A stretch of DNA of 64,000 bases from Bacteroidota bacterium (GTDB lineage Bacteria > Bacteroidota > Bacteroidia > Bacteroidales > SZUA-534). The stretch lies in the NCBI GenBank assembly GCA_003250355.1, contig QKGS01000078.1:616-64615 (forward strand), read 5' to 3'. Below are positions 32,815 through 54,939 of this stretch, piece by piece (the stretch's first letter is position 1; each line of letters begins with the position of its first letter). Below the pieces are notes generated by a model. The model worked only from the letters and a program-made list of their open reading frames with translations, was not told where the DNA came from and made no database searches. The position numbers were made by a program, and so were the translations under genes.

Positions 32815-32830
32815 TTTTTCTTAGTATGTG

Positions 32831-33089
32831 AGTAATGAGTAATGAGTAATGAGTAATGAGTAATGAGTAGTGAGTAGTGAGTAGTGAGTAGTGAGTAGTG
32901 AGTAGTGAGTAGTGAGTAGTGAGTAGTGAGTAGTGAGTAGTGAGTAGTGAGTAGTGAGTAGTGAGTAATGAGTAGTGAGTAATGAGTAGTGAGTAGTGAG
33001 TAGTGAGTAGTGAGTAATGAGTAGTGAGTAGTGAGTAGTGAGTAGTGAGTAGTGAGTAGTGAGTAGTGAGTAGTGAGTAGTGAGTAGTG
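32831..33089 (+). repeat. tandem heptanucleotide array, 37 x AGTARTG
   Basis: Counted directly: 37 contiguous 7-nt units. The A variant (AGTAATG) occupies units 1-4, 20, 22 and 27, and the rest are AGTAGTG. A degenerate unit precedes at 32823-32830. Confidence 0.97.
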
Positions 33090-33098
33090 TTTCAATTA

Positions 33099-33285
33099 CT
33101 CATATCTCATATCTCATATCTCATATCTCATATCTCATATCTCATATCTCACATCTCATATCTCACATCTCACATCTCATATCTCACATCTCATATCTCA
33201 CATCTCATATCTCATATCTCATATCTCATATCTCATATCTCATATCTCATATCTCATATCTCATATCTCATATCTCATATCTCAT
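33099..33285 (+). repeat. tandem heptanucleotide array, 26 x CTCAYAT plus a partial unit
   Basis: Counted directly: 26 contiguous units, with the C variant (CTCACAT) at units 8, 10, 11, 13 and 15. A 9-nt spacer (tttcaatta, 33090-33098) separates it from the first array. Confidence 0.97.
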
Positions 33286-33302
33286 TACACACTACTAAAA
33301 AT

Positions 33303-43466: not shown

Positions 43467-43589
43467 AATATTGTTAAAACCCTTCCACATCAATTCCTTT
43501 GCAAATCATTTTATTGATTTTATTGGTCTCAGAATATTTAATCAATATTACTAAAGCACTGTCAAATTATTATTTATATATTTGCCAAC

Positions 43590-43795
43590 GAATTTGGTTC
43601 TTTTCTTAGTTGTATCAATTAAGTAAGATAAAAAGGGAATCCGGTGCTTAGTTAAACTAAAAATCCGGAGCTGTACCCGCAGCTGTGAATCCTACCCGAA
43701 AGGGAAATGACTTTTGAACCGCAATGCCACTGCTCTGATAACTATAGAGTCGGGAAGGCATCGAAAGTTGGGATAAGCCAGAAGACCTGCCATAA
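43590..43795 (+). promoter_or_regulatory. cobalamin (B12) riboswitch
   Basis: aaaagggaatccggtg...aatccggagctgtacccgcagctgtga core, gccactg (43726-43732), gggaaggc, and the B12 box aagccagaagacctgcc (43775-43791). It lies directly upstream of a TonB-dependent receptor. Confidence 0.9.
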
Positions 43796-43848
43796 TTCAT
43801 AACAATTAATTTAATAAAAAGCCTCGGGGTAAAGGTTTTATTAAAGGT

Positions 43849-47610: not shown

Positions 47611-47661
47611 TATGAAAATTTGTAAATTGGGGAATTAGAAAATTAATTAATCCAATTTATT

Positions 47662-47996
47662 ATGAAGACAGATAATCTTATTCTTGATTTAACTTTTGAA
47701 TTTTCATTAAATGTAATTGAATATGTTGAACTTCTTGAAGAAAATAGAAAGTATAATTATTAAAATCATGAACTCCAATAGTGGCAAATACCAGAGAAGC
47801 ACAAAGTGCAGAAAGTAGAGCCGATTTTGTACATAAGTTTAAAATAGCAGATAAAGAGGTGAAGGAAACATAGTATTGGTTAATGCTTTGTGAAAAAGCA
47901 AGTAAATACCCAGATCCTCCCGAAGAAGTAATGAAACAGATAAAAGATATAGGAAATATAATCTCTAAAATAATAATATCATCAAAGAAAAAATAA
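47662..47996 (+). pseudogene. disrupted four-helix-bundle protein gene (TIGR02436 / 23S rRNA IVS-protein family)
   Basis: The N-terminal piece MKTDNLILDLTFEFSLNVIEYVELLEENRKYNY stops early. A second frame gives ANTREAQSAESRADFVHKFKIADKEVKET*YWLMLCEKA..., matching the family signature EAQ..S..DF..K..IA.KE..ET.YWL but with an in-frame TAG and a missing central helix. Confidence 0.7.
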
Positions 47997-48001
47997 ATGT
48001 A

Positions 48002-48117
48002 GAATTTGAGAATTTGAAAGTTGATAGGAATAAGGATTCTTGTGAGTATTTTTAATTTTCACATTTCCCAATTCCCACTTTTTCACATTTTCACATTTCC
48101 AAATTTCCAAATTTCAA
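48002..48117. repeat. purine-rich GAATTTG-type block followed by a mirrored pyrimidine-rich TTTCCAAA/TTTTCACA block
   Basis: gaatttgagaatttgaaagttgataggaataagg ... ttttcacatttcccaattcccactttttcacattttcacatttccaaatttccaaatttcaag. The two arms are partly complementary if G:U pairs are allowed. Confidence 0.65.
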
Positions 48118-48122
48118 GAAAC

Positions 48123-49121
48123 ATGAAGAAAGAATTACAACACAAAATAGACTTTAAAACCAAGCCGCAAGGTGCTTTAGGACAGTTAGAAGAACTGGCG
48201 TTACAAATAGGACAAATACAAAACACCCTTACGCCCGAGTTGAAGAATCCTACATTTTTGGTATTCGCAGCCGACCATGGTTTAACAGAAGAAAAGATAA
48301 GTACCTTCCCTAAAGAGGTTACTTTCCAAATGGTTATGAACTTTCTTTACGGCGGGGCTGCAATCAATGTATTTTGTAATCAGCACGATATTACCCTAAA
48401 AATAGTTGATGCAGGGGTCGATTACGATTTTCCCGACACATACAAACTTATAAATGCCAAAATTGCTCATGGTACAAAAAACAGCCTTAAAGAGCCGGCA
48501 ATGTCAACCAATGAATGCGAGCAGGCACTTGCAAAAGGAGCAGAACTGGTAAAGGCTGAGGCCGCCGCAGGGTGTAACGTTATTGGCTTTGGCGAAATGG
48601 GAATTGGCAATACATCGGCTGCAGCGCTTATAATGCAAAAAATAACCAAGCTCCCTATTGAACAGTGTGTAGGTGCCGGAACAGGCCTCGATAACGATGG
48701 TATTGACCATAAGACCGAGGTTCTCAGAAAAGTTACACAAAAACACAATGTTACAGCTCCAAAAGATATTCTTGCCGCAGTGGGTGGATTAGAAATTGCA
48801 ATGATGTGTGGTGCTATGCTTGAAGCAAAAAAGCAGAATATGCTTATACTTGTTGACGGTTTTATTGCCACGTCGGCATTTATGGTTGCTAATGAAATAG
48901 ACAAATCAATAAAAGATAACGCCGTATTCGGACACGTATCGAACGAGCAGGGACATAAGCGAATGATTGAGTATTTGGGCGTAAAGCCTATATTAAATAT
49001 GGGCTTACGCCTTGGCGAAGGTACCGGTGCTGCATTAGCTTACCCTTTAATTAAGTCATCGATTGAGTTTCTTAACAAAATGGCAAGCTTTGAGGATGCA
49101 GGGGTATCAGAGTCTAATTAG
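48123..49121 (+). CDS. cobT: nicotinate-nucleotide--dimethylbenzimidazole phosphoribosyltransferase
   Basis: KTKPQGALGQLE, FAADHG, GEMGIGNTS and LGEGTGAAL motifs. Start taken at MKKELQHKID, because the upstream extension translates repeat DNA. Confidence 0.92.
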   Translation: MKKELQHKIDFKTKPQGALGQLEELALQIGQIQNTLTPELKNPTFLVFAADHGLTEEKISTFPKEVTFQMVMNFLYGGAAINVFCNQHDITLKIVDAGVDYDFPDTYKLINAKIAHGTKNSLKEPAMSTNECEQALAKGAELVKAEAAAGCNVIGFGEMGIGNTSAAALIMQKITKLPIEQCVGAGTGLDNDGIDHKTEVLRKVTQKHNVTAPKDILAAVGGLEIAMMCGAMLEAKKQNMLILVDGFIATSAFMVANEIDKSIKDNAVFGHVSNEQGHKRMIEYLGVKPILNMGLRLGEGTGAALAYPLIKSSIEFLNKMASFEDAGVSESN

Positions 49122-49355
49122 GAAATTAGGAAATATGAAAATTAGGGAATGAGAAAAAATAAGAATTTTAGTGTTACCTAGATTTCGCAAGTCATCGGAT
49201 GAATTATTGATTTGGAACCAATTAGCTTTTTAAAGTTGGTGCTTTCTATTTGGTATTCATCCTATGACTATTAGACGATTGTGAAAAATACCTGCGGATT
49301 TTAGGTGTTACTAATTTCCAAATTTTACATTTTCACATTCTCAAATTGAAATTTG
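49121..49355. repeat. cobT-cobS spacer: GGAAATTAGG-type block, about 145-nt insert with 13/14-nt direct repeats, mirrored CTAATTTCC-type block
   Basis: ggaaattag (49121-49129) is the exact complement of ctaatttcc (49311-49319). Direct repeats attttagtgttac (49165-49177) / attttaggtgttac (49298-49311). Internal IR gtcatcggatgaat (49191-49204) / attcatcctatgac (49255-49268). Confidence 0.6.
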
Positions 49356-49376
49356 AATAAACACACAAACAGAATA

Positions 49377-50132
49377 ATGTATCAATTAAAGTTACTACGC
49401 ACAGCAATAATGTTTTACACCCGTATTCCGGTAGGAATCATTAAAGGGTATTCCAATGAAATGGCATCGCAGTCAGTTTCGTATTTTCCATTAGTCGGAG
49501 GAATTATCGGGCTGTTATGTGCAGGAGTATTTTATGCCTTTTCGCTAGTGCTTCCGCAAAATGTAGCAATACTATTAAGTATGGCATTTTCGGTTTATCT
49601 GACCGGAGCATTTCACGAAGATGGCTTTGCCGATTTCTGCGACGGCTTTGGAGGTGGTTACACCAAAGAGCGTGTAATGGAAATAATGAAAGACAGCCGC
49701 ATAGGTGCTTACGGAACCATTGGAATTGTTTTTATGCTTGCCATAAAGTTTTTTGCATTGGTTGAGCTTTCGCAAATGCAGGTGGTATATGCTTTAGTTG
49801 CCGGCCATATTCTTAGCAGAATGGTTACCGCTGTTTTAAGCTTTACTGCCAAATATGTACAGAGCGTTGAAAAAAGCAAACTTAAAGCAGAGCTATCTAC
49901 AAGTAAATTTCAAGGTATGATATTTCCGGTTTTGATAGGACTTGTTCCGGTTGCATGGCTTGGATGGCAGACTGTTGCATTTTATTTAGCAGTAGTATTG
50001 CCCGTGTTTCTTATTTACAGGCGATACATTATAAAGAAAATAGGCGGCTACACCGGCGATGTACTTGGCGCTTTTCAGCAAATAACAGAGGTGATTTTTT
50101 ATTTGAGCTATATTGCTTATTTGGGGTTCTAA
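49377..50132 (+). CDS. cobS: adenosylcobinamide-GDP ribazoletransferase (cobalamin synthase)
   Basis: FYTRIPV, TGAFHEDGFADFCDG and GGYTGDVLGA motifs in a polytopic membrane protein. Confidence 0.9.
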   Translation: MYQLKLLRTAIMFYTRIPVGIIKGYSNEMASQSVSYFPLVGGIIGLLCAGVFYAFSLVLPQNVAILLSMAFSVYLTGAFHEDGFADFCDGFGGGYTKERVMEIMKDSRIGAYGTIGIVFMLAIKFFALVELSQMQVVYALVAGHILSRMVTAVLSFTAKYVQSVEKSKLKAELSTSKFQGMIFPVLIGLVPVAWLGWQTVAFYLAVVLPVFLIYRRYIIKKIGGYTGDVLGAFQQITEVIFYLSYIAYLGF

Positions 50133-50186
50133 GTTGCAGGTTATAGGTTATAGGTTATAGGTTGCAAGTTGCAGGTTCATAGGCTG
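50133..50186 (+). repeat. degenerate heptamer array GTTRYAG (about 7 units)
   Basis: gttgcag gttatag gttatag gttatag gttgcaa gttgcag gttcatag, starting directly after the cobS stop. Confidence 0.85.
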
Positions 50187-50256
50187 TTCAAAAGTTCAAA
50201 TGAAAGGGGAATTAGTGAATTTGTTTGAGAATGCTTAATTGATATATGAAATTAAT

Positions 50257-50368
50257 CCCCAAAGGGGCGACATATATTAGCCCGGTGCGTAGCGCCGGGT
50301 ATGAGGTAGGAAAGCTGAAATTGTCGCAAGCAGTAGCGTTTATTTGAAATAGATTGAAACCATGCGAC
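50257..50368 (+). ncRNA. about 112-nt structured repeat element, copy 1 (candidate RNA motif, unassigned)
   Basis: Three hairpins: cccc-aaa-gggg; cccggtgc-gta-gcgccggg; and ttgtcgca...tgcgacga (8 bp). The same order, spacing and conserved loop AGCAG.AGCG recur at 53845..53958. Confidence 0.5.
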
Positions 50369-50492
50369 GAAAAGCTAAAAGTAATCTGATTCGTAAATTT
50401 TGCAAGACTTTTGTTTCTTTTGAGACCAAAAGAAATATAAAGAAAAATGAAAGCCTTGTAATATTATTGAGTCATACAGAAAATAAGAGAAA

Positions 50493-51020
50493 TTGATAAC
50501 ATTCATACGTCATACAAGTGTTAATTTTCCGCAGGGAATATGCTACGGAGCTACCGATGTTCCTGTTGCCGAATCATTTTTCGATGAAGCTCAGGCAATA
50601 AAAAACAGCATTCGTGAATCAACATTTCATGAAGTATGGGTTAGTCCTTTATCACGTTGTACTAAGTTAGCTGATTCATTATTTGGGCTTGAGGGATATA
50701 AGGTTGATAATAGGTTAAAGGAGCTGAATTTCGGAGAGTGGGAGAAAGTTCCATGGAAGAATATTTACAATATGGAATATGGCAAACACTGGATGGATAA
50801 CTACGCCGCTGCCCGCTGCCCCAATGGTGAATCATTTATGGATCAAATATCGAGAGTAAAATCATTCTATGCCGATAAAGTAAACGGGAACAATAAAAAT
50901 ATAGCCATAATAACACATGCCGGGGTAATTCGTGCATTTTTATGTTATTTAAAGCAAATATCACCCTACGAAGCATTTGAACACAAAATAGGGTATGGAG
51001 AAGTGATGGAGGTAGCGTAG
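50493..51020 (+). CDS. cobC: alpha-ribazole phosphatase (histidine phosphatase family)
   Basis: ITFIRHTSVN...CYGATDVPV and a later ITHAGVIRA motif. An apparent TTG start. Confidence 0.8.
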   Translation: MITFIRHTSVNFPQGICYGATDVPVAESFFDEAQAIKNSIRESTFHEVWVSPLSRCTKLADSLFGLEGYKVDNRLKELNFGEWEKVPWKNIYNMEYGKHWMDNYAAARCPNGESFMDQISRVKSFYADKVNGNNKNIAIITHAGVIRAFLCYLKQISPYEAFEHKIGYGEVMEVA

Positions 51021-51040
51021 AGACAAGGCATGCCTTGTCT
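51021..51040 (+). other. perfect 20-nt palindrome/hairpin directly after the cobC stop
   Basis: agacaaggcatgccttgtct with no clear U-tract. Probably an intercistronic RNA hairpin rather than a terminator. Confidence 0.5.
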
Positions 51041-51160
51041 TGTCTGTACATTCTGGTATCCAGTTCCGGTATTTGTATAGGAAAACCTGACAGTTTTTTT
51101 ATAACCAGTCAGGTCTGGTAAAACAGAAGAGAATAAGAAAAAAAGAGGATATTAGAGGTT

Positions 51161-52648
51161 ATGAAGAATATACAAAATAAAGTAGCTCCCGTAATGTTCG
51201 TAGGAACAGGGTCTGACGTTGGAAAGAGTGTTGTAAATGCAGCATACTGCCGCATATTGTTACAAGACGGTTTTGCACCGGCACCGTTTAAGGCGCAGAA
51301 TATGTCGCTCAATAGCTTTGCTACCCCCGAGGGGCTTGAAATAGGCAGGGCTCAGGCAGTACAAGCCGAAGCGTGCGGTATTCCTTGCTCTGTCGATATG
51401 AACCCCGTACTGCTAAAACCGGTAAGCAACCAAACTGCTCAGGTTGTGTTAAACGGCAAACCTATTGGTAACCAATCGGCAAAAGAGTACTTTCTTGGAA
51501 CCGACCGCGATTATATTTTCGCCCAGGCAAAAAATGCTTTCGACCGCCTTGCGGCAAAATATCATCCCATAGTATTGGAAGGTGCAGGAAGTATATCGGA
51601 GCTGAATCTTAGAAGCAAAGATATTGTTAATATGCGTATGGCAATAGCCACACAAGCTGCCACATTCCTTATTGCCGATATTGACCGTGGCGGTGTATTT
51701 GGCAGTGTTTACGGAACTATTAAGTTACTTGAACCCGAAGAGCGCGCCAGAATTAAGGGTATTATCATAAACAAATTTCGCGGCGATATCGACCTGTTTA
51801 AAGATGGGCGAAAAATGCTCGAAGAACTTACCGGAGTACCTGTGGTTGCAATACTTCCATATTTCACCGATATTAAAATTGAGCAGGAAGATTCTGTTGT
51901 AGTTGACAACTATATGGGGCGTACCGAACAAGGCAAACTCAATATTGCAGTAGTGTTGCTTCGTCATATGAGTAATTTCACTGATTTCAATGCAATGGAA
52001 AAAGTTCCCGGAGTACACCTATTTTATACTGCCGACCCTGTTGAGATTGAAAAAGCCGATGTTGTAATTATTCCCGGCTCTAAAAATACAATATTCGATA
52101 TGCTCGATATTCGCAAAAAAGGGATAGCCAAAGCTATACTCAATGCTCACCATAGCGGAAAGGCAGTATACGGCATTTGCGGAGGCTACCAAATAATGGG
52201 TACCCAAATAAACGACCCTTATGGAATGGAAGGCGATACTCAATCTATCCCCGGATTGGGAATACTCCCTGTTAATACTATCCTGAGTAAAGAAAAAGTT
52301 ACAGAGCAGTGTACATTTACCTTTCAAGGTTATGAACAAAAATGCGAAGGATACGAAATACATATGGGACAAACCCAACGCCTTGGCGGTACTGCCGTAT
52401 GCAATATTAACGGCAAAGAGGGCGACGGTTGTTTCTTAAACCCCCAAACATGGGGAACATACATACACGGTATACTCGATAACAAAGCCGTTATTGATTA
52501 TATTCTTGAACACAACGGAGTAACAGAGCGAACAGAGGCATTTGATTATGCAGCATTCAAGGAAGAGCAATACAACAAACTTGCCGATCATGTGCGCGCA
52601 AATACCGATATGGAGTTGTTTTATGACTTGATAAAGGTTGAAGGGTAG
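51161..52648 (+). CDS. cobQ: cobyric acid synthase
   Basis: MFVGTGSDVGKS, FKAQNMSLNS and INKFRGD motifs, plus a C-terminal GATase with ICGGYQIMG and H..IHG. Confidence 0.92.
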   Translation: MKNIQNKVAPVMFVGTGSDVGKSVVNAAYCRILLQDGFAPAPFKAQNMSLNSFATPEGLEIGRAQAVQAEACGIPCSVDMNPVLLKPVSNQTAQVVLNGKPIGNQSAKEYFLGTDRDYIFAQAKNAFDRLAAKYHPIVLEGAGSISELNLRSKDIVNMRMAIATQAATFLIADIDRGGVFGSVYGTIKLLEPEERARIKGIIINKFRGDIDLFKDGRKMLEELTGVPVVAILPYFTDIKIEQEDSVVVDNYMGRTEQGKLNIAVVLLRHMSNFTDFNAMEKVPGVHLFYTADPVEIEKADVVIIPGSKNTIFDMLDIRKKGIAKAILNAHHSGKAVYGICGGYQIMGTQINDPYGMEGDTQSIPGLGILPVNTILSKEKVTEQCTFTFQGYEQKCEGYEIHMGQTQRLGGTAVCNINGKEGDGCFLNPQTWGTYIHGILDNKAVIDYILEHNGVTERTEAFDYAAFKEEQYNKLADHVRANTDMELFYDLIKVEG

Positions 52649-52736
52649 GTTGAAGGGTTACAGGTTACAAGAATACTGGAGACTGGAGACTGTTACAAGT
52701 ATCAAGTTGCAGATTACACGTTTTTGCATAATTCAT
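52634..52736. repeat. right copy of the inverted repeat pair (partner 43363..43466)
   Basis: ggttgaaggg x2, ggttacag/gttacaag, actggag x2, then tacaagtatcaagttgcagattacacgttttt (52694-52725). It begins inside the last codons of cobQ. Confidence 0.9.
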
Positions 52737-52761
52737 AATTCAAATTATATATTTATAATAA

Positions 52762-53787
52762 ATGTTACACGGTCACGGAAACGATAAATACAAGTACAGC
52801 AAAGCAATAGTTGCCGATTTTAGTTCAAATGTATGGTTCGAGGGGACACCAAAAGCTCTTACCAATTATTTGGTTCAAAATATCAATACAATATCGGAAT
52901 ACCCCGAACCCGATGCCGGCTCCCTTGCCACCAATATTGAACAACATTACAACCTGTCGAAAGGGGCTTGTATGGTTACTAACGGTACCGCCGAAGCCTT
53001 CTATGTTATAGCCCGCTATTTCGAAAAAAAATCGTCGACAGTAGTAATACCATCATTTGCCGAATACGAAGATGCGGTTAGGTTCAACAATCATAAAATA
53101 AGCTTCGTAATGAACGGAACTTTGAGTGCCGATTCCACTTTCAACACCGATATGGTATGGCTGGGTAACCCCAACAACCCCGACGGTAAAGTGCTTAGCT
53201 ACCAAACCATTCAAACATGGCTGCGCAACAATGGTAACACTATATTTATAATTGACGAAGCTTATGCCGACCTTTGTATAGGCTACAATTCTGTAATTCC
53301 GCTTATTAACGAACACCAAAACCTGATAGTTATAAAATCGTACACCAAGTCGTTTGCCATTCCGGGACTCCGATTGGGGGTTATATTGGCTCATGCCGGA
53401 TTTATCGATAAATTCAAGTTTTACATGATTCCGTGGTCGGTAAATTCACTTGCTCAACAAGCCGGTAAATACATAATACGAAACTACAATTCACTGTTGT
53501 TCAGTGCTGAACTTATGAATAAGCTTTCGCAAAATATGCAGCAAGCCCTTTCGGAAAATACAAGTCTGGAGCTTACTCCTTCGCAATGCAACTATTTTCT
53601 TCTGAAACTCAAAGTTGGCGACAGTTTGGGGTTAAAACAGTGGCTTATTAATAACCACGGCTATCTTATTCGCGATGCATCGAATTTCAGAGGACTATCG
53701 ACACAGCACTTTAGAGTTGCAATACAAGACGAAGAATTGAACAATAAACTTGTTGAGGCAATCAGGGAGTTTTGTGGGAGTATATAG
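52762..53787 (+). CDS. cobD: threonine-phosphate decarboxylase (class I/II aminotransferase fold)
   Basis: MLHGHGND N-terminus, NPNNPDG, DEAYADL and SYTKSFAIPGLRLG (PLP lysine). Located in a cob gene context. Confidence 0.8.
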   Translation: MLHGHGNDKYKYSKAIVADFSSNVWFEGTPKALTNYLVQNINTISEYPEPDAGSLATNIEQHYNLSKGACMVTNGTAEAFYVIARYFEKKSSTVVIPSFAEYEDAVRFNNHKISFVMNGTLSADSTFNTDMVWLGNPNNPDGKVLSYQTIQTWLRNNGNTIFIIDEAYADLCIGYNSVIPLINEHQNLIVIKSYTKSFAIPGLRLGVILAHAGFIDKFKFYMIPWSVNSLAQQAGKYIIRNYNSLLFSAELMNKLSQNMQQALSENTSLELTPSQCNYFLLKLKVGDSLGLKQWLINNHGYLIRDASNFRGLSTQHFRVAIQDEELNNKLVEAIREFCGSI

Positions 53788-53844
53788 ATGCTGGACACAG
53801 TATTCTGGATTCGTGACATTGGACACTTGATGGCAGGTTTAAAG

Positions 53845-53958
53845 CCCCAAGGGGGCGATATATAATAGCCCGGTGCGAAGCGCCGGGTGATAATACGAAT
53901 TAAAAAAGCGATGCAAGCAGAGCGGTATCTTTGAAAGAACAAAGTTATTATGCATCGC
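53845..53958 (+). ncRNA. about 112-nt structured repeat element, copy 2
   Basis: cccc-aa-ggggg; cccggtgc-gaa-gcgccggg; gcgatgca...tgcatcgc (8 bp). Relative to copy 1, the third stem changes at 4 paired positions while keeping complementarity. Confidence 0.5.
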
Positions 53959-53997
53959 AACTATACAAACTATAATTATTTTGAAAAACACTAATAA

Positions 53998-54939
53998 TTG
54001 GAAACAATATTAAATATTACACTACAAGTACCGGCACTAGCCCTCATAATTGGCTTCATCCTCGATACTATAATCGGCGACCCTTACAAAATGCCTCACC
54101 CTATAAAATTATTCGGTAACCTTATTGCAGCATTTGAGCGCAAGCTGAATGAAGGCAAAGAAAAATTTTTAAAAGGGGTGATATCAACCCTGATCCTCGT
54201 TTCATCAGTATGGATATTCTTTTATTTTTTGCTGAAAATAATATCCCCATACCCTATTGCAACACTAGTTGTAACCTCTGTTTTCGTATTTTACGGAATC
54301 GCTAACCATATGCTCATTAAAGAAGGGCTGAAAGTAGAAAAAGCCTTGCGTAACCAAGGATTAGATGCAGGTAGGAAAGCTGTATCAATGATAGTAGGGC
54401 GAGAAACAGGTAAGCTTACCACAAATCAAATACGTAAAGCGGTATTGGAAACCATTTCCGAAAATTTGAGCGACGGTGTTATTGCACCGCTCTTTTACTA
54501 TGCCTTAGGCGGTATCCCGGCCATGATGGCATACAAAATGATAAACACCCTCGATTCAATGATAGGATATAAAAATGACCGATACAAGGAGTTTGGGTAT
54601 TTTGCCGCTAAGCTCGATGATGTGGCTAACTTTATTCCGGCCCGCATTACCGCACTGTTAATGGTAGCAATTACATTTAGCCTGCGCGGGTTAAAGTTTA
54701 TATTCAAATACGGCAACAAACATTCAAGCCCCAATGCCGGATACCCCGAAGCAGCTTTGGCAGGAATAATAAATGTACAATTTGGCGGACCAAATTATTA
54801 CCATGGCAAACTGGTTGAAAAACCGTATATAGGCTCTAACGAACAAGATATTACTCCAGCCCATATATTTAAGGCTTCGACAATAAACTTTGCTGTTTCT
54901 GTTGTAGCCGTAGTTATAATTATATTATTATTAAATTAA
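53998..54939 (+). CDS. cbiB: adenosylcobinamide-phosphate synthase
   Basis: LDTIIGDP...PHPIKLFG, SENLSDGVIAPLFY, SPNAGYPEAA and GGPNYYHG motifs. An apparent TTG start. Confidence 0.88.
   Translation: METILNITLQVPALALIIGFILDTIIGDPYKMPHPIKLFGNLIAAFERKLNEGKEKFLKGVISTLILVSSVWIFFYFLLKIISPYPIATLVVTSVFVFYGIANHMLIKEGLKVEKALRNQGLDAGRKAVSMIVGRETGKLTTNQIRKAVLETISENLSDGVIAPLFYYALGGIPAMMAYKMINTLDSMIGYKNDRYKEFGYFAAKLDDVANFIPARITALLMVAITFSLRGLKFIFKYGNKHSSPNAGYPEAALAGIINVQFGGPNYYHGKLVEKPYIGSNEQDITPAHIFKASTINFAVSVVAVVIIILLLN

Follow-up and report, generated by a model that had tools for sequence, protein, structure and literature searches.

The REP and REPIN repeats of Proteobacteria and their RAYT partner genes are among the described systems closest to the elements reported here. 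They are intergenic, multi-copy sequences built on a short G+C-rich hairpin with a conserved tetranucleotide at its 5' foot, they occur in inverted dimers and within transcription units, and a low-copy Y1 gene is found between inverted repeats (PMC3116915, PMC6006769, PMC3733652). In these classical systems each end carries one hairpin, the foot reads GT[AG]G, the repeats are lineage-specific, and the partner is a class 2 RAYT with the motif Y-x3-NP. A further point of comparison is provided by the ends of IS200/IS605 elements and PATEs, where a Y1 HUH transposase of the IS200 type (PF01797, NF033573) recognizes strand-specific subterminal hairpins at directly oriented left and right ends; such elements insert 3' of a fixed tetra- or pentanucleotide and do not duplicate the target. 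Subclass 1.2 of the TnpA-Y1 proteins (about 148 aa, low copy, with the motifs DH[IV]H, WQ and Y-x3-Q-x2-HH) is listed without IS200-type ends and as “REP: no” (Quentin et al. 2018, Table 1, PMC6006769).

The RNA family Acido-Lenti-1 was described from Acidobacteria and Lentisphaerae, in some cases close to group II introns, and was considered probably an sRNA (Weinberg et al. 2010, PMC2864571). A 2026 preprint states that “little is known” about it and speculates that Acido-Lenti-1 annotations beside Tannerella protease genes represent regulators. Neither a function nor a transposase link for Acido-Lenti-1 was found in the searchable literature, and our literature search returned no paper tying Acido-Lenti-1 or subclass 1.2 to repeats.

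The 64-kb stretch of Bacteroidota DNA analyzed here (the window) contains two copies of a three-hairpin element in its cob operon. We consider it likely, with a probability of roughly 0.7, that these are singlets belonging to a family of small, non-coding REP/REPIN-like repeats which has a Y1 partner; because the repeat elsewhere flanks an IS200-like Y1 gene, the units most likely represent miniature mobile DNA inserted into a B12 operon.

Two units in the cob operon

The original prediction placed the two copies on the plus strand, in the cobS–cobC and cobD–cbiB spacers, and direct reading located both as claimed (gene order cobS, copy A, cobC; cobD, copy B, cbiB), copy A at 50257–50370 and copy B at 53844–53958. 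The predicted start of copy A is also correct, but the end at 50368 falls two bases short, because the 3' arm of stem 3 extends from 50363 to 50370. The features of the two copies are:

50254–50381, + strand: copy A, whole three-hairpin unit, extent of the match to model R2 (76.4 bits, E 6e-14); its two-hairpin module, + strand, scores 58.2 bits with model R1
50257–50267, + strand: hairpin 1 of A, CCCC-AAA-GGGG, seen in sequence, fold and family covariation
50268–50280, + strand: linker of A, CGACATATATTAG, which contains the ATA...TAG found throughout the family, its TAG lying directly 5' of hairpin 2
50281–50299, + strand: hairpin 2 of A, CCCGGTGC-GTA-GCGCCGGG, containing a T·G wobble, a pair on the + strand only
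50300–50320, + strand: spacer of A, purine/A-rich, 3' of hairpin 2
50321–50328, + strand: 5' arm of stem 3 of A, TTGTCGCA
50329–50362, + strand: loop of stem 3 of A, 34 nt, AGCAGTAGCG ... TTTGAAA ...
50363–50370, + strand: 3' arm of stem 3 of A, TGCGACGA
53842–53969, + strand: copy B, whole three-hairpin unit, extent of the match to model R2 (87.9 bits, E 2e-16); its two-hairpin module, + strand, scores 59.1 bits with model R1
53844–53856, + strand: hairpin 1 of B, GCCCC-AAG-GGGGC, 5 bp
53857–53868, + strand: linker of B, GATATATAATAG
53869–53887, + strand: hairpin 2 of B, CCCGGTGC-GAA-GCGCCGGG
53888–53907, + strand: spacer of B, A-rich
53908–53915, + strand: 5' arm of stem 3 of B, GCGATGCA
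53916–53950, + strand: loop of stem 3 of B, 35 nt, in which MFE folding places an inner hairpin
53951–53958, + strand: 3' arm of stem 3 of B, TGCATCGC

The plan common to both copies comprises two short G+C hairpins, a conserved linker of 12–13 nt, an A-rich spacer, and an 8-bp stem closing a loop of 34–35 nt. A 44-nt core (CCCCAARGGGGCGAYATATAWTAGCCCGGTGCGWAGCGCCGGGT) occurs exactly twice in the 64 kb and in none of 100 dinucleotide-preserving shuffles of the window, and a search of the window with the covariance model, filters off, did not return a third copy. The three hairpins are recovered by MFE folds of the + strand, with z = –2.3 for A and –4.2 for B. As predicted, four pairs of stem 3 differ between A and B (T-A to G-C, T·G to C-G, T-A to A-T, and C-G to T-A) with complementarity kept; three of these changes are fully compensatory, and one is a one-sided repair of a wobble to a Watson-Crick pair. 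The loop segment AGCAG(T)AGCG, likewise predicted as a common feature, is indeed present in A and B, though absent from the wider family. No + strand terminator was seen at the units, and the counts of promoters and terminators in the cob spacers are at shuffle level.

According to a CobQ comparison, the window belongs in or near the Prolixibacteraceae, its nearest relatives showing 78% and 74% identity. In the relatives’ operons (L120 and L122), cobS/cobC and cobD/cbiB overlap or abut, and no model matches were obtained; the cob spacers of the window (47611–54000) are unusually long, with 410, 231, 360, 140, 113, and 210 nt. As judged from these operons, the cob location of both copies is a gain specific to the lineage of the window. 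The source genome, which stems from a hydrothermal-vent metagenome, probably carries at least three copies, since one more contig of equal depth carries the module; with two copies in the window and probably one on that contig, its copy number looks low.

The cob spacers also contain short tandem repeats, namely AGGTTAT (3.7 copies) at 50138–63, 12-mers and heptamers at 52635–92, and octamers at 48055–115 and 49116–67; heptamer runs similar to those of the window adjoin other module copies in contigs of the same metagenome. Between cobC and cobQ, the two relatives possess a second DBI_PRT (cobT-like) gene (4716–5762 in L120, 4767–5822 in L122), which the window lacks at this position (51021–51160).

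Presence and absence vary at other loci as well. L107 has a unit between leuC and leuD which three relatives with 89–92% LeuC identity lack, and its leuA–leuC unit is common to only one of four relatives. Insertion boundaries or a target site could not be read from filled versus empty leuC–leuD spacers, which are too diverged, and no conserved tetranucleotide or target site was seen flanking the units. An element-free joint does not occur among the metagenome contigs, which drop rare variants, so that this says nothing on absence. One leuC–leuD spacer (L203, 4111–4485) holds a small gene of the 23S_rRNA_IVP family in place of a unit. Two different MAGs (L063, 683–808 and 3070–3196; L038, 2398–2520 and 1–128) have units at two corresponding places in the trp operon, with matching types of stem 3, CCGTCCG upstream of trpE and GCGCCGA between trpG and trpD, and with strongly diverged loops and spacers, which points to long vertical persistence of these units.

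The two-hairpin module, its folding strand and its proposed Y1 partner

The original prediction was unable to assign the element to a known class. A search of Rfam provides one for hairpins 1 and 2, which match RF01687 (Acido-Lenti-1) on the – strand, copy B with 37.7 bits against a gathering score of 37, and copy A with 30.9 bits, below the gathering score (E 2.8e-4 in a 4.4-kb search); other Rfam families were not detected over 49900–54300 at the E-value threshold. The likeness consists in two hairpins separated by a conserved 12–13-nt linker (CUAauuUAUgcCG in Rfam orientation) and in the occurrence of several copies per genome, e.g., in Lentisphaera araneosa. However, Rfam files the family as an sRNA gene on the opposite strand, and its model is missing the third hairpin.

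In both window copies, hairpin 2 contains a C·A mismatch when read on the Rfam strand, which is a U·G pair on the + strand of the window. Counted in the orientation of the window + strand, 119 listed family members contain 39 G·T versus 11 A·C combinations, and at the single free pair of hairpin 2 the ratio is 11 G·T to 0 A·C. The alignment published by Weinberg et al., in Rfam orientation, contains 38 A·C versus 8 G·U. Since the wobble counts in both alignments favor the + strand of the window, this strand, rather than that of Rfam, is taken as the folding strand; the “ncRNA” annotation of Acido-Lenti-1 by Rfam and genome pipelines is probably on the wrong strand.

Searching a single genome per species for the 28-nt core pattern ATAnnnTAGCCCGGnGCnnnGCnCCGGG yielded at least 119 loci. 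Among the matches listed, the pattern occurs in more than 12 phyla, with several loci per genome, including Calditrichota, Planctomycetota, Desulfobacterota, Bacteroidota, and Deferribacterota, and further Acidobacteriota, Verrucomicrobiota, Fibrobacterota, and Cloacimonadota. Of the 119 listed loci, well over a dozen each come from two MAGs, one of Syntrophobacteraceae and one of Deferribacteres. Isolates that carry the repeat include Labilibaculum sp. K2S, Dysgonomonas hofstadii DSM 104969, Dyadobacter frigoris, and Tannerella forsythia. Viral contigs gave no matches to the core pattern. An inverted partner within 500 nt was observed for 92 of 175 modules. ATA and TAG are invariant in the 119-sequence alignment by construction, being fixed in the search pattern, and the same applies to the position of TAG directly 5' of hairpin 2 in all 119 listed members; the preceding base, which was not fixed, can be A, T, G, or C. 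The linker is also recovered by R1 and RF01687 at loci selected on protein alone, and its consensus is contained in Rfam’s own model. Hairpin 1, which lies outside the search pattern, covaries in the 119 listed members, with five of five pairs changing on both sides and a covariation score reached by none of 500 shuffles.

At four loci (L005, L017, L042, L106), a module lies just upstream of, and co-oriented with, an ORF of about 150 aa, and an inverted module follows past the stop codon. The ORFs code for Y1_Tnp proteins (PF01797, E 1e-21 to 1e-27). The Y1 proteins score 55–61 bits with NF033573 (IS200/IS605 family transposase; cut-off 55) and 22 bits with NF047646 (REP_Tyr_transpos; cut-off 80), so that they are not assigned to class 2 RAYTs. 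With 146–151 aa and the motifs DHVH, WQ, and RYIxxQEEHH, the module-adjacent proteins fit subclass 1.2.

Conversely, 80 metagenome loci were selected solely for protein similarity and then searched with the module model. The module was present in the place and orientation expected for a REPtron in 50 of the 80 loci, and on both sides of the gene in 24. The end of the + module is mostly 44–81 nt away from the start codon (five are farther, at 147–217 nt), and the – module mostly begins 45–82 nt behind the stop codon, with two outliers at 1 and 171 nt. Rfam’s own RF01687 model, applied at its gathering score, matched on both sides of the Y1 gene in L156 and L173, and on a single side at five further loci. 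The module thus behaves as a REP-like repeat which flanks subclass 1.2 Y1 genes in inverted (REPtron) arrangement. The original prediction had set a structured RNA family against fragments of a known mobile element, and what was found comes close to the latter, as a REP-like repeat flanking Y1 transposase genes.

Like the REP/REPIN repeats, the module is built on a short G+C hairpin, preceded here by an (n)TAG whose TAG was fixed in the search pattern, is intergenic and multi-copy, occurs in inverted dimers as well as in units within transcription units, and encloses a low-copy Y1 gene between inverted copies. It differs in its partner, which is class 1, subclass 1.2 (Y-x3-Q-x2-HH), in having three hairpins per end instead of one, in the foot nTAG, and in a core that is nearly identical across phyla. 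With IS200/IS605 elements and PATEs it shares the type of Y1 HUH transposase and, by analogy, strand-specific subterminal hairpins as putative recognition sites, but the ends around the Y1 genes are inverted, not direct, and the gene is low-copy and lacks tnpB. These data attach a repeat family to a Y1 subclass listed as repeat-free, widen the REPIN-RAYT concept beyond Proteobacteria and Cyanobacteria, and offer an explanation for an Rfam family which has been without a function since 2010 and is annotated by genome pipelines as an “ncRNA” gene.

Some arrangements deviate from the inverted pair. At a contig end, locus L026 (4013–4173) contains three two-hairpin modules in head-to-tail tandem with a period of 66–67 nt. 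A CRISPR was rejected as the identity of this array, since the period corresponds to a whole hairpin 1, hairpin 2 and spacer, and variable spacers are lacking; an integron attC site was also rejected, as the R''/R' GTTRRRY core is missing. At locus L022 (150–1000), a diverged Y1 gene, likewise of subclass 1.2 (36% identity; 321–764, – strand), lies between inverted copies of a module that is different but organized alike, with GCCACGAAGTGGC and CCGTGGGTGCAACCCACGG separated by a 13-nt linker. Because this Y1 gene has a different flanking module, sister repeat families coexist in one MAG, which also carries three-hairpin units.

Stem 3 and the three-hairpin form

In most phyla, hairpin 2 is followed at a distance of 21–30 nt by a small third hairpin (GCCCTGAAAGGGC) and then by RAATA. 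In Marinilabiliales and related Bacteroidota, a stem of 7–9 bp enclosing 28–35 nt is located 19–22 nt behind hairpin 2, and AAT(T/A)G is usually next. Carriers of this form comprise Prolixibacteraceae, Labilibaculum, Draconibacterium, and a MAG labeled Odoribacter. Position and trailing motif suggest homology between stem 3 and the small third hairpin; the three-hairpin form is a lineage variant of the standard module.

The commonest arms of stem 3 are CCGTCCG/CGGACGG. Variants are CCGTTCGA/TCGAACGG, TTGTCCCA/TGGGACAA, CCGTCGCG/CGCGACG, GGCGCAT/ATGCGCC, GCGGCGCG/CGCGCCGC, GCGCCGA/TCGGCGC, and CCGGCCA/TGGCCGG, besides the two versions of the window, A and B; in 25 units, pairing is kept with at least ten different arm sequences. 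Pairs were counted in a model-fitted alignment, because plain MAFFT put four 5' arms out of register. In this alignment of 25 units, which leans towards structure, seven of eight pairs change on both sides, and 84% of the cells pair, or more if the weak innermost pair is left out, again in an alignment fitted to structure. The observed score was not matched by any shuffle or slid register. Shuffle tests of single units are individually weak (p 0.003–0.24), and the case for stem 3 is built on its constant position and its varied arm sequences rather than on these tests. As far as can be judged from aligned sequences, the covariation of stem 3 is real and family-wide, so that the selection on secondary structure proposed originally for the two window copies extends to the family.

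Like the standard module, the three-hairpin form occurs in REPIN-like dimers, in which two inverted units span about 270 nt (L068, L086, L090); the window copies A and B are singlets. Two three-hairpin units in tandem, 545 nt apart, were observed in L048. At the 80 protein-selected loci, all Y1-flanking ends have the small third hairpin, none of the Y1 genes lies beside the stem 3 form, and full-length R2 matches just bridge the small third hairpin or enter the gene. A motif search of the 64-kb window did not reveal a Y1 gene.

Orientation, rival readings and a proposed mechanism

Single three-hairpin units are, without exception (14 of 14, about 11 independent loci, based on ORF-based gene calls), in sense orientation to the adjacent gene or genes, and several are located between cistrons of leu, trp, and cob biosynthetic operons. 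Standard-type singles of other phyla, with gene calls likewise ORF-based, show no such bias (27 sense versus 20 antisense). The uniform orientation would not be predicted by a purely selfish DNA model; it suggests that selection acts on the transcript and is compatible with a role in mRNA. The units could accordingly be read as primarily functional RNAs of operon mRNAs, acting as segmental stabilizers, processing sites or cistron insulators under selection at the RNA level, with the transposase link reflecting only their origin or being incidental. This reading, which overlaps in part with the one we prefer, agrees with the location of the single units between or behind co-directional genes, with wobble pairs on the sense strand, with stem 3 pairing that is kept while loop and spacer drift, and with the persistence at orthologous trp positions in L063 and L038. 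Nevertheless, we regard it as rather unlikely, as the same module occurs on both strands, in inverted pairs and around Y1 genes, the distance of the units to the flanking stop or start codon varies from 9 to 477 nt, a terminator-like tail is lacking, and the number of independent loci is small, with gene calls derived from ORFs.

Two copies within one cob operon might also suggest a cobalamin-related cis-regulatory RNA, such as a second riboswitch-like sensor or an attenuator, and an association with cob/B12 genes was hinted at in the original prediction. However, the operon already has a standard cobalamin riboswitch aptamer upstream (43578–43808; RF00174, 88.8 bits), which is the sole aptamer match, the cob operons of the two nearest relatives have neither the spacers nor the units, and units elsewhere are found beside leu, trp, SprA, SusD, amylase, and other genes, with no cob family among 26 flanking proteins. 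Because the cob junctions of the relatives are free of units and the units elsewhere reside in leu, trp, and other loci, the cob location carries no B12 connection and the units are most likely not B12-specific RNAs; a regulatory role of this kind is close to refuted, and an annotation of the window should list the two elements as repeats instead of regulators of B12 genes. Another reading would see in each unit a complete IS200/IS605-type miniature element, similar to a PATE and moving as a single-stranded circle, with hairpins 1 and 2 as the left end and stem 3 as the right end on one strand. In its favor, the score of the associated enzyme is that of an IS200/IS605 family transposase, the hairpins of a unit all fold on the same strand, and tandem arrays exist in L026 and L048. 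Yet the Y1 genes are situated between inverted modules instead of direct left and right ends, stem 3 sits where a third hairpin exists on both sides of the gene, and the flanks of the units share no conserved tetranucleotide or target site, which makes this reading improbable, albeit less so than a cobalamin sensor.

If the window elements are REP/REPIN-like repeats with a Y1 partner, as we favor, their 5' module (hairpin 1, the linker with ATA-nnn-TAG, and hairpin 2) would correspond to Acido-Lenti-1 on its true folding strand. By analogy to IS608 TnpA and E. coli TnpA-REP, the Y1 enzyme would recognize, in single-stranded DNA of the window + strand, hairpin 2 together with the TAG preceding it, and would cut and rejoin nearby, spreading the units in trans. 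In Marinilabiliales, the small third hairpin would have been replaced by the 7–9-bp stem with its loop of about 28–35 nt, at equal distance from hairpin 2, and this lineage would have gained both window copies in cob spacers that its relatives lack. As they are sense-oriented inside an operon, the window units are presumably transcribed and should fold in the mRNA, where they may act, by conjecture from the E. coli REPs, as decay barriers or processing sites. E. coli REPs stabilize upstream mRNA segments. Counting against this explanation, there is no Y1 gene in the window, and the stem 3 form was found without a Y1 partner. Moreover, the copy number in the source genome appears low, and the partner, whose activity is putative, is not a class 2 RAYT but belongs to a subclass listed as free of REPs.

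The combined proposal that Acido-Lenti-1 is the REP partner of subclass 1.2 and that its Marinilabiliales derivative has been taken over as an RNA element of operons is tentative, and we would put it at well below even odds. If true, more than 12 phyla would share a REPIN-RAYT-like system whose recognition hairpin hardly varies, and an intercistronic role on the sense strand, in cob, leu, and trp operons, would account for the covarying stem 3 as well as for the exclusively sense orientation. The sense-only three-hairpin form provides a testable case of mobile DNA kept as an mRNA element of operons.

Outside the cob operon, the gap between two – strand ORFs at 32815–33302 of the window is filled by two adjacent heptamer arrays, consisting of about 38 copies of AGTAGTG (32823–33089) and about 27 copies of CTCATAT (33099–33285). 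These arrays resemble the short tandemly repeated heptamers of cyanobacteria and are unusual for a Bacteroidota genome.
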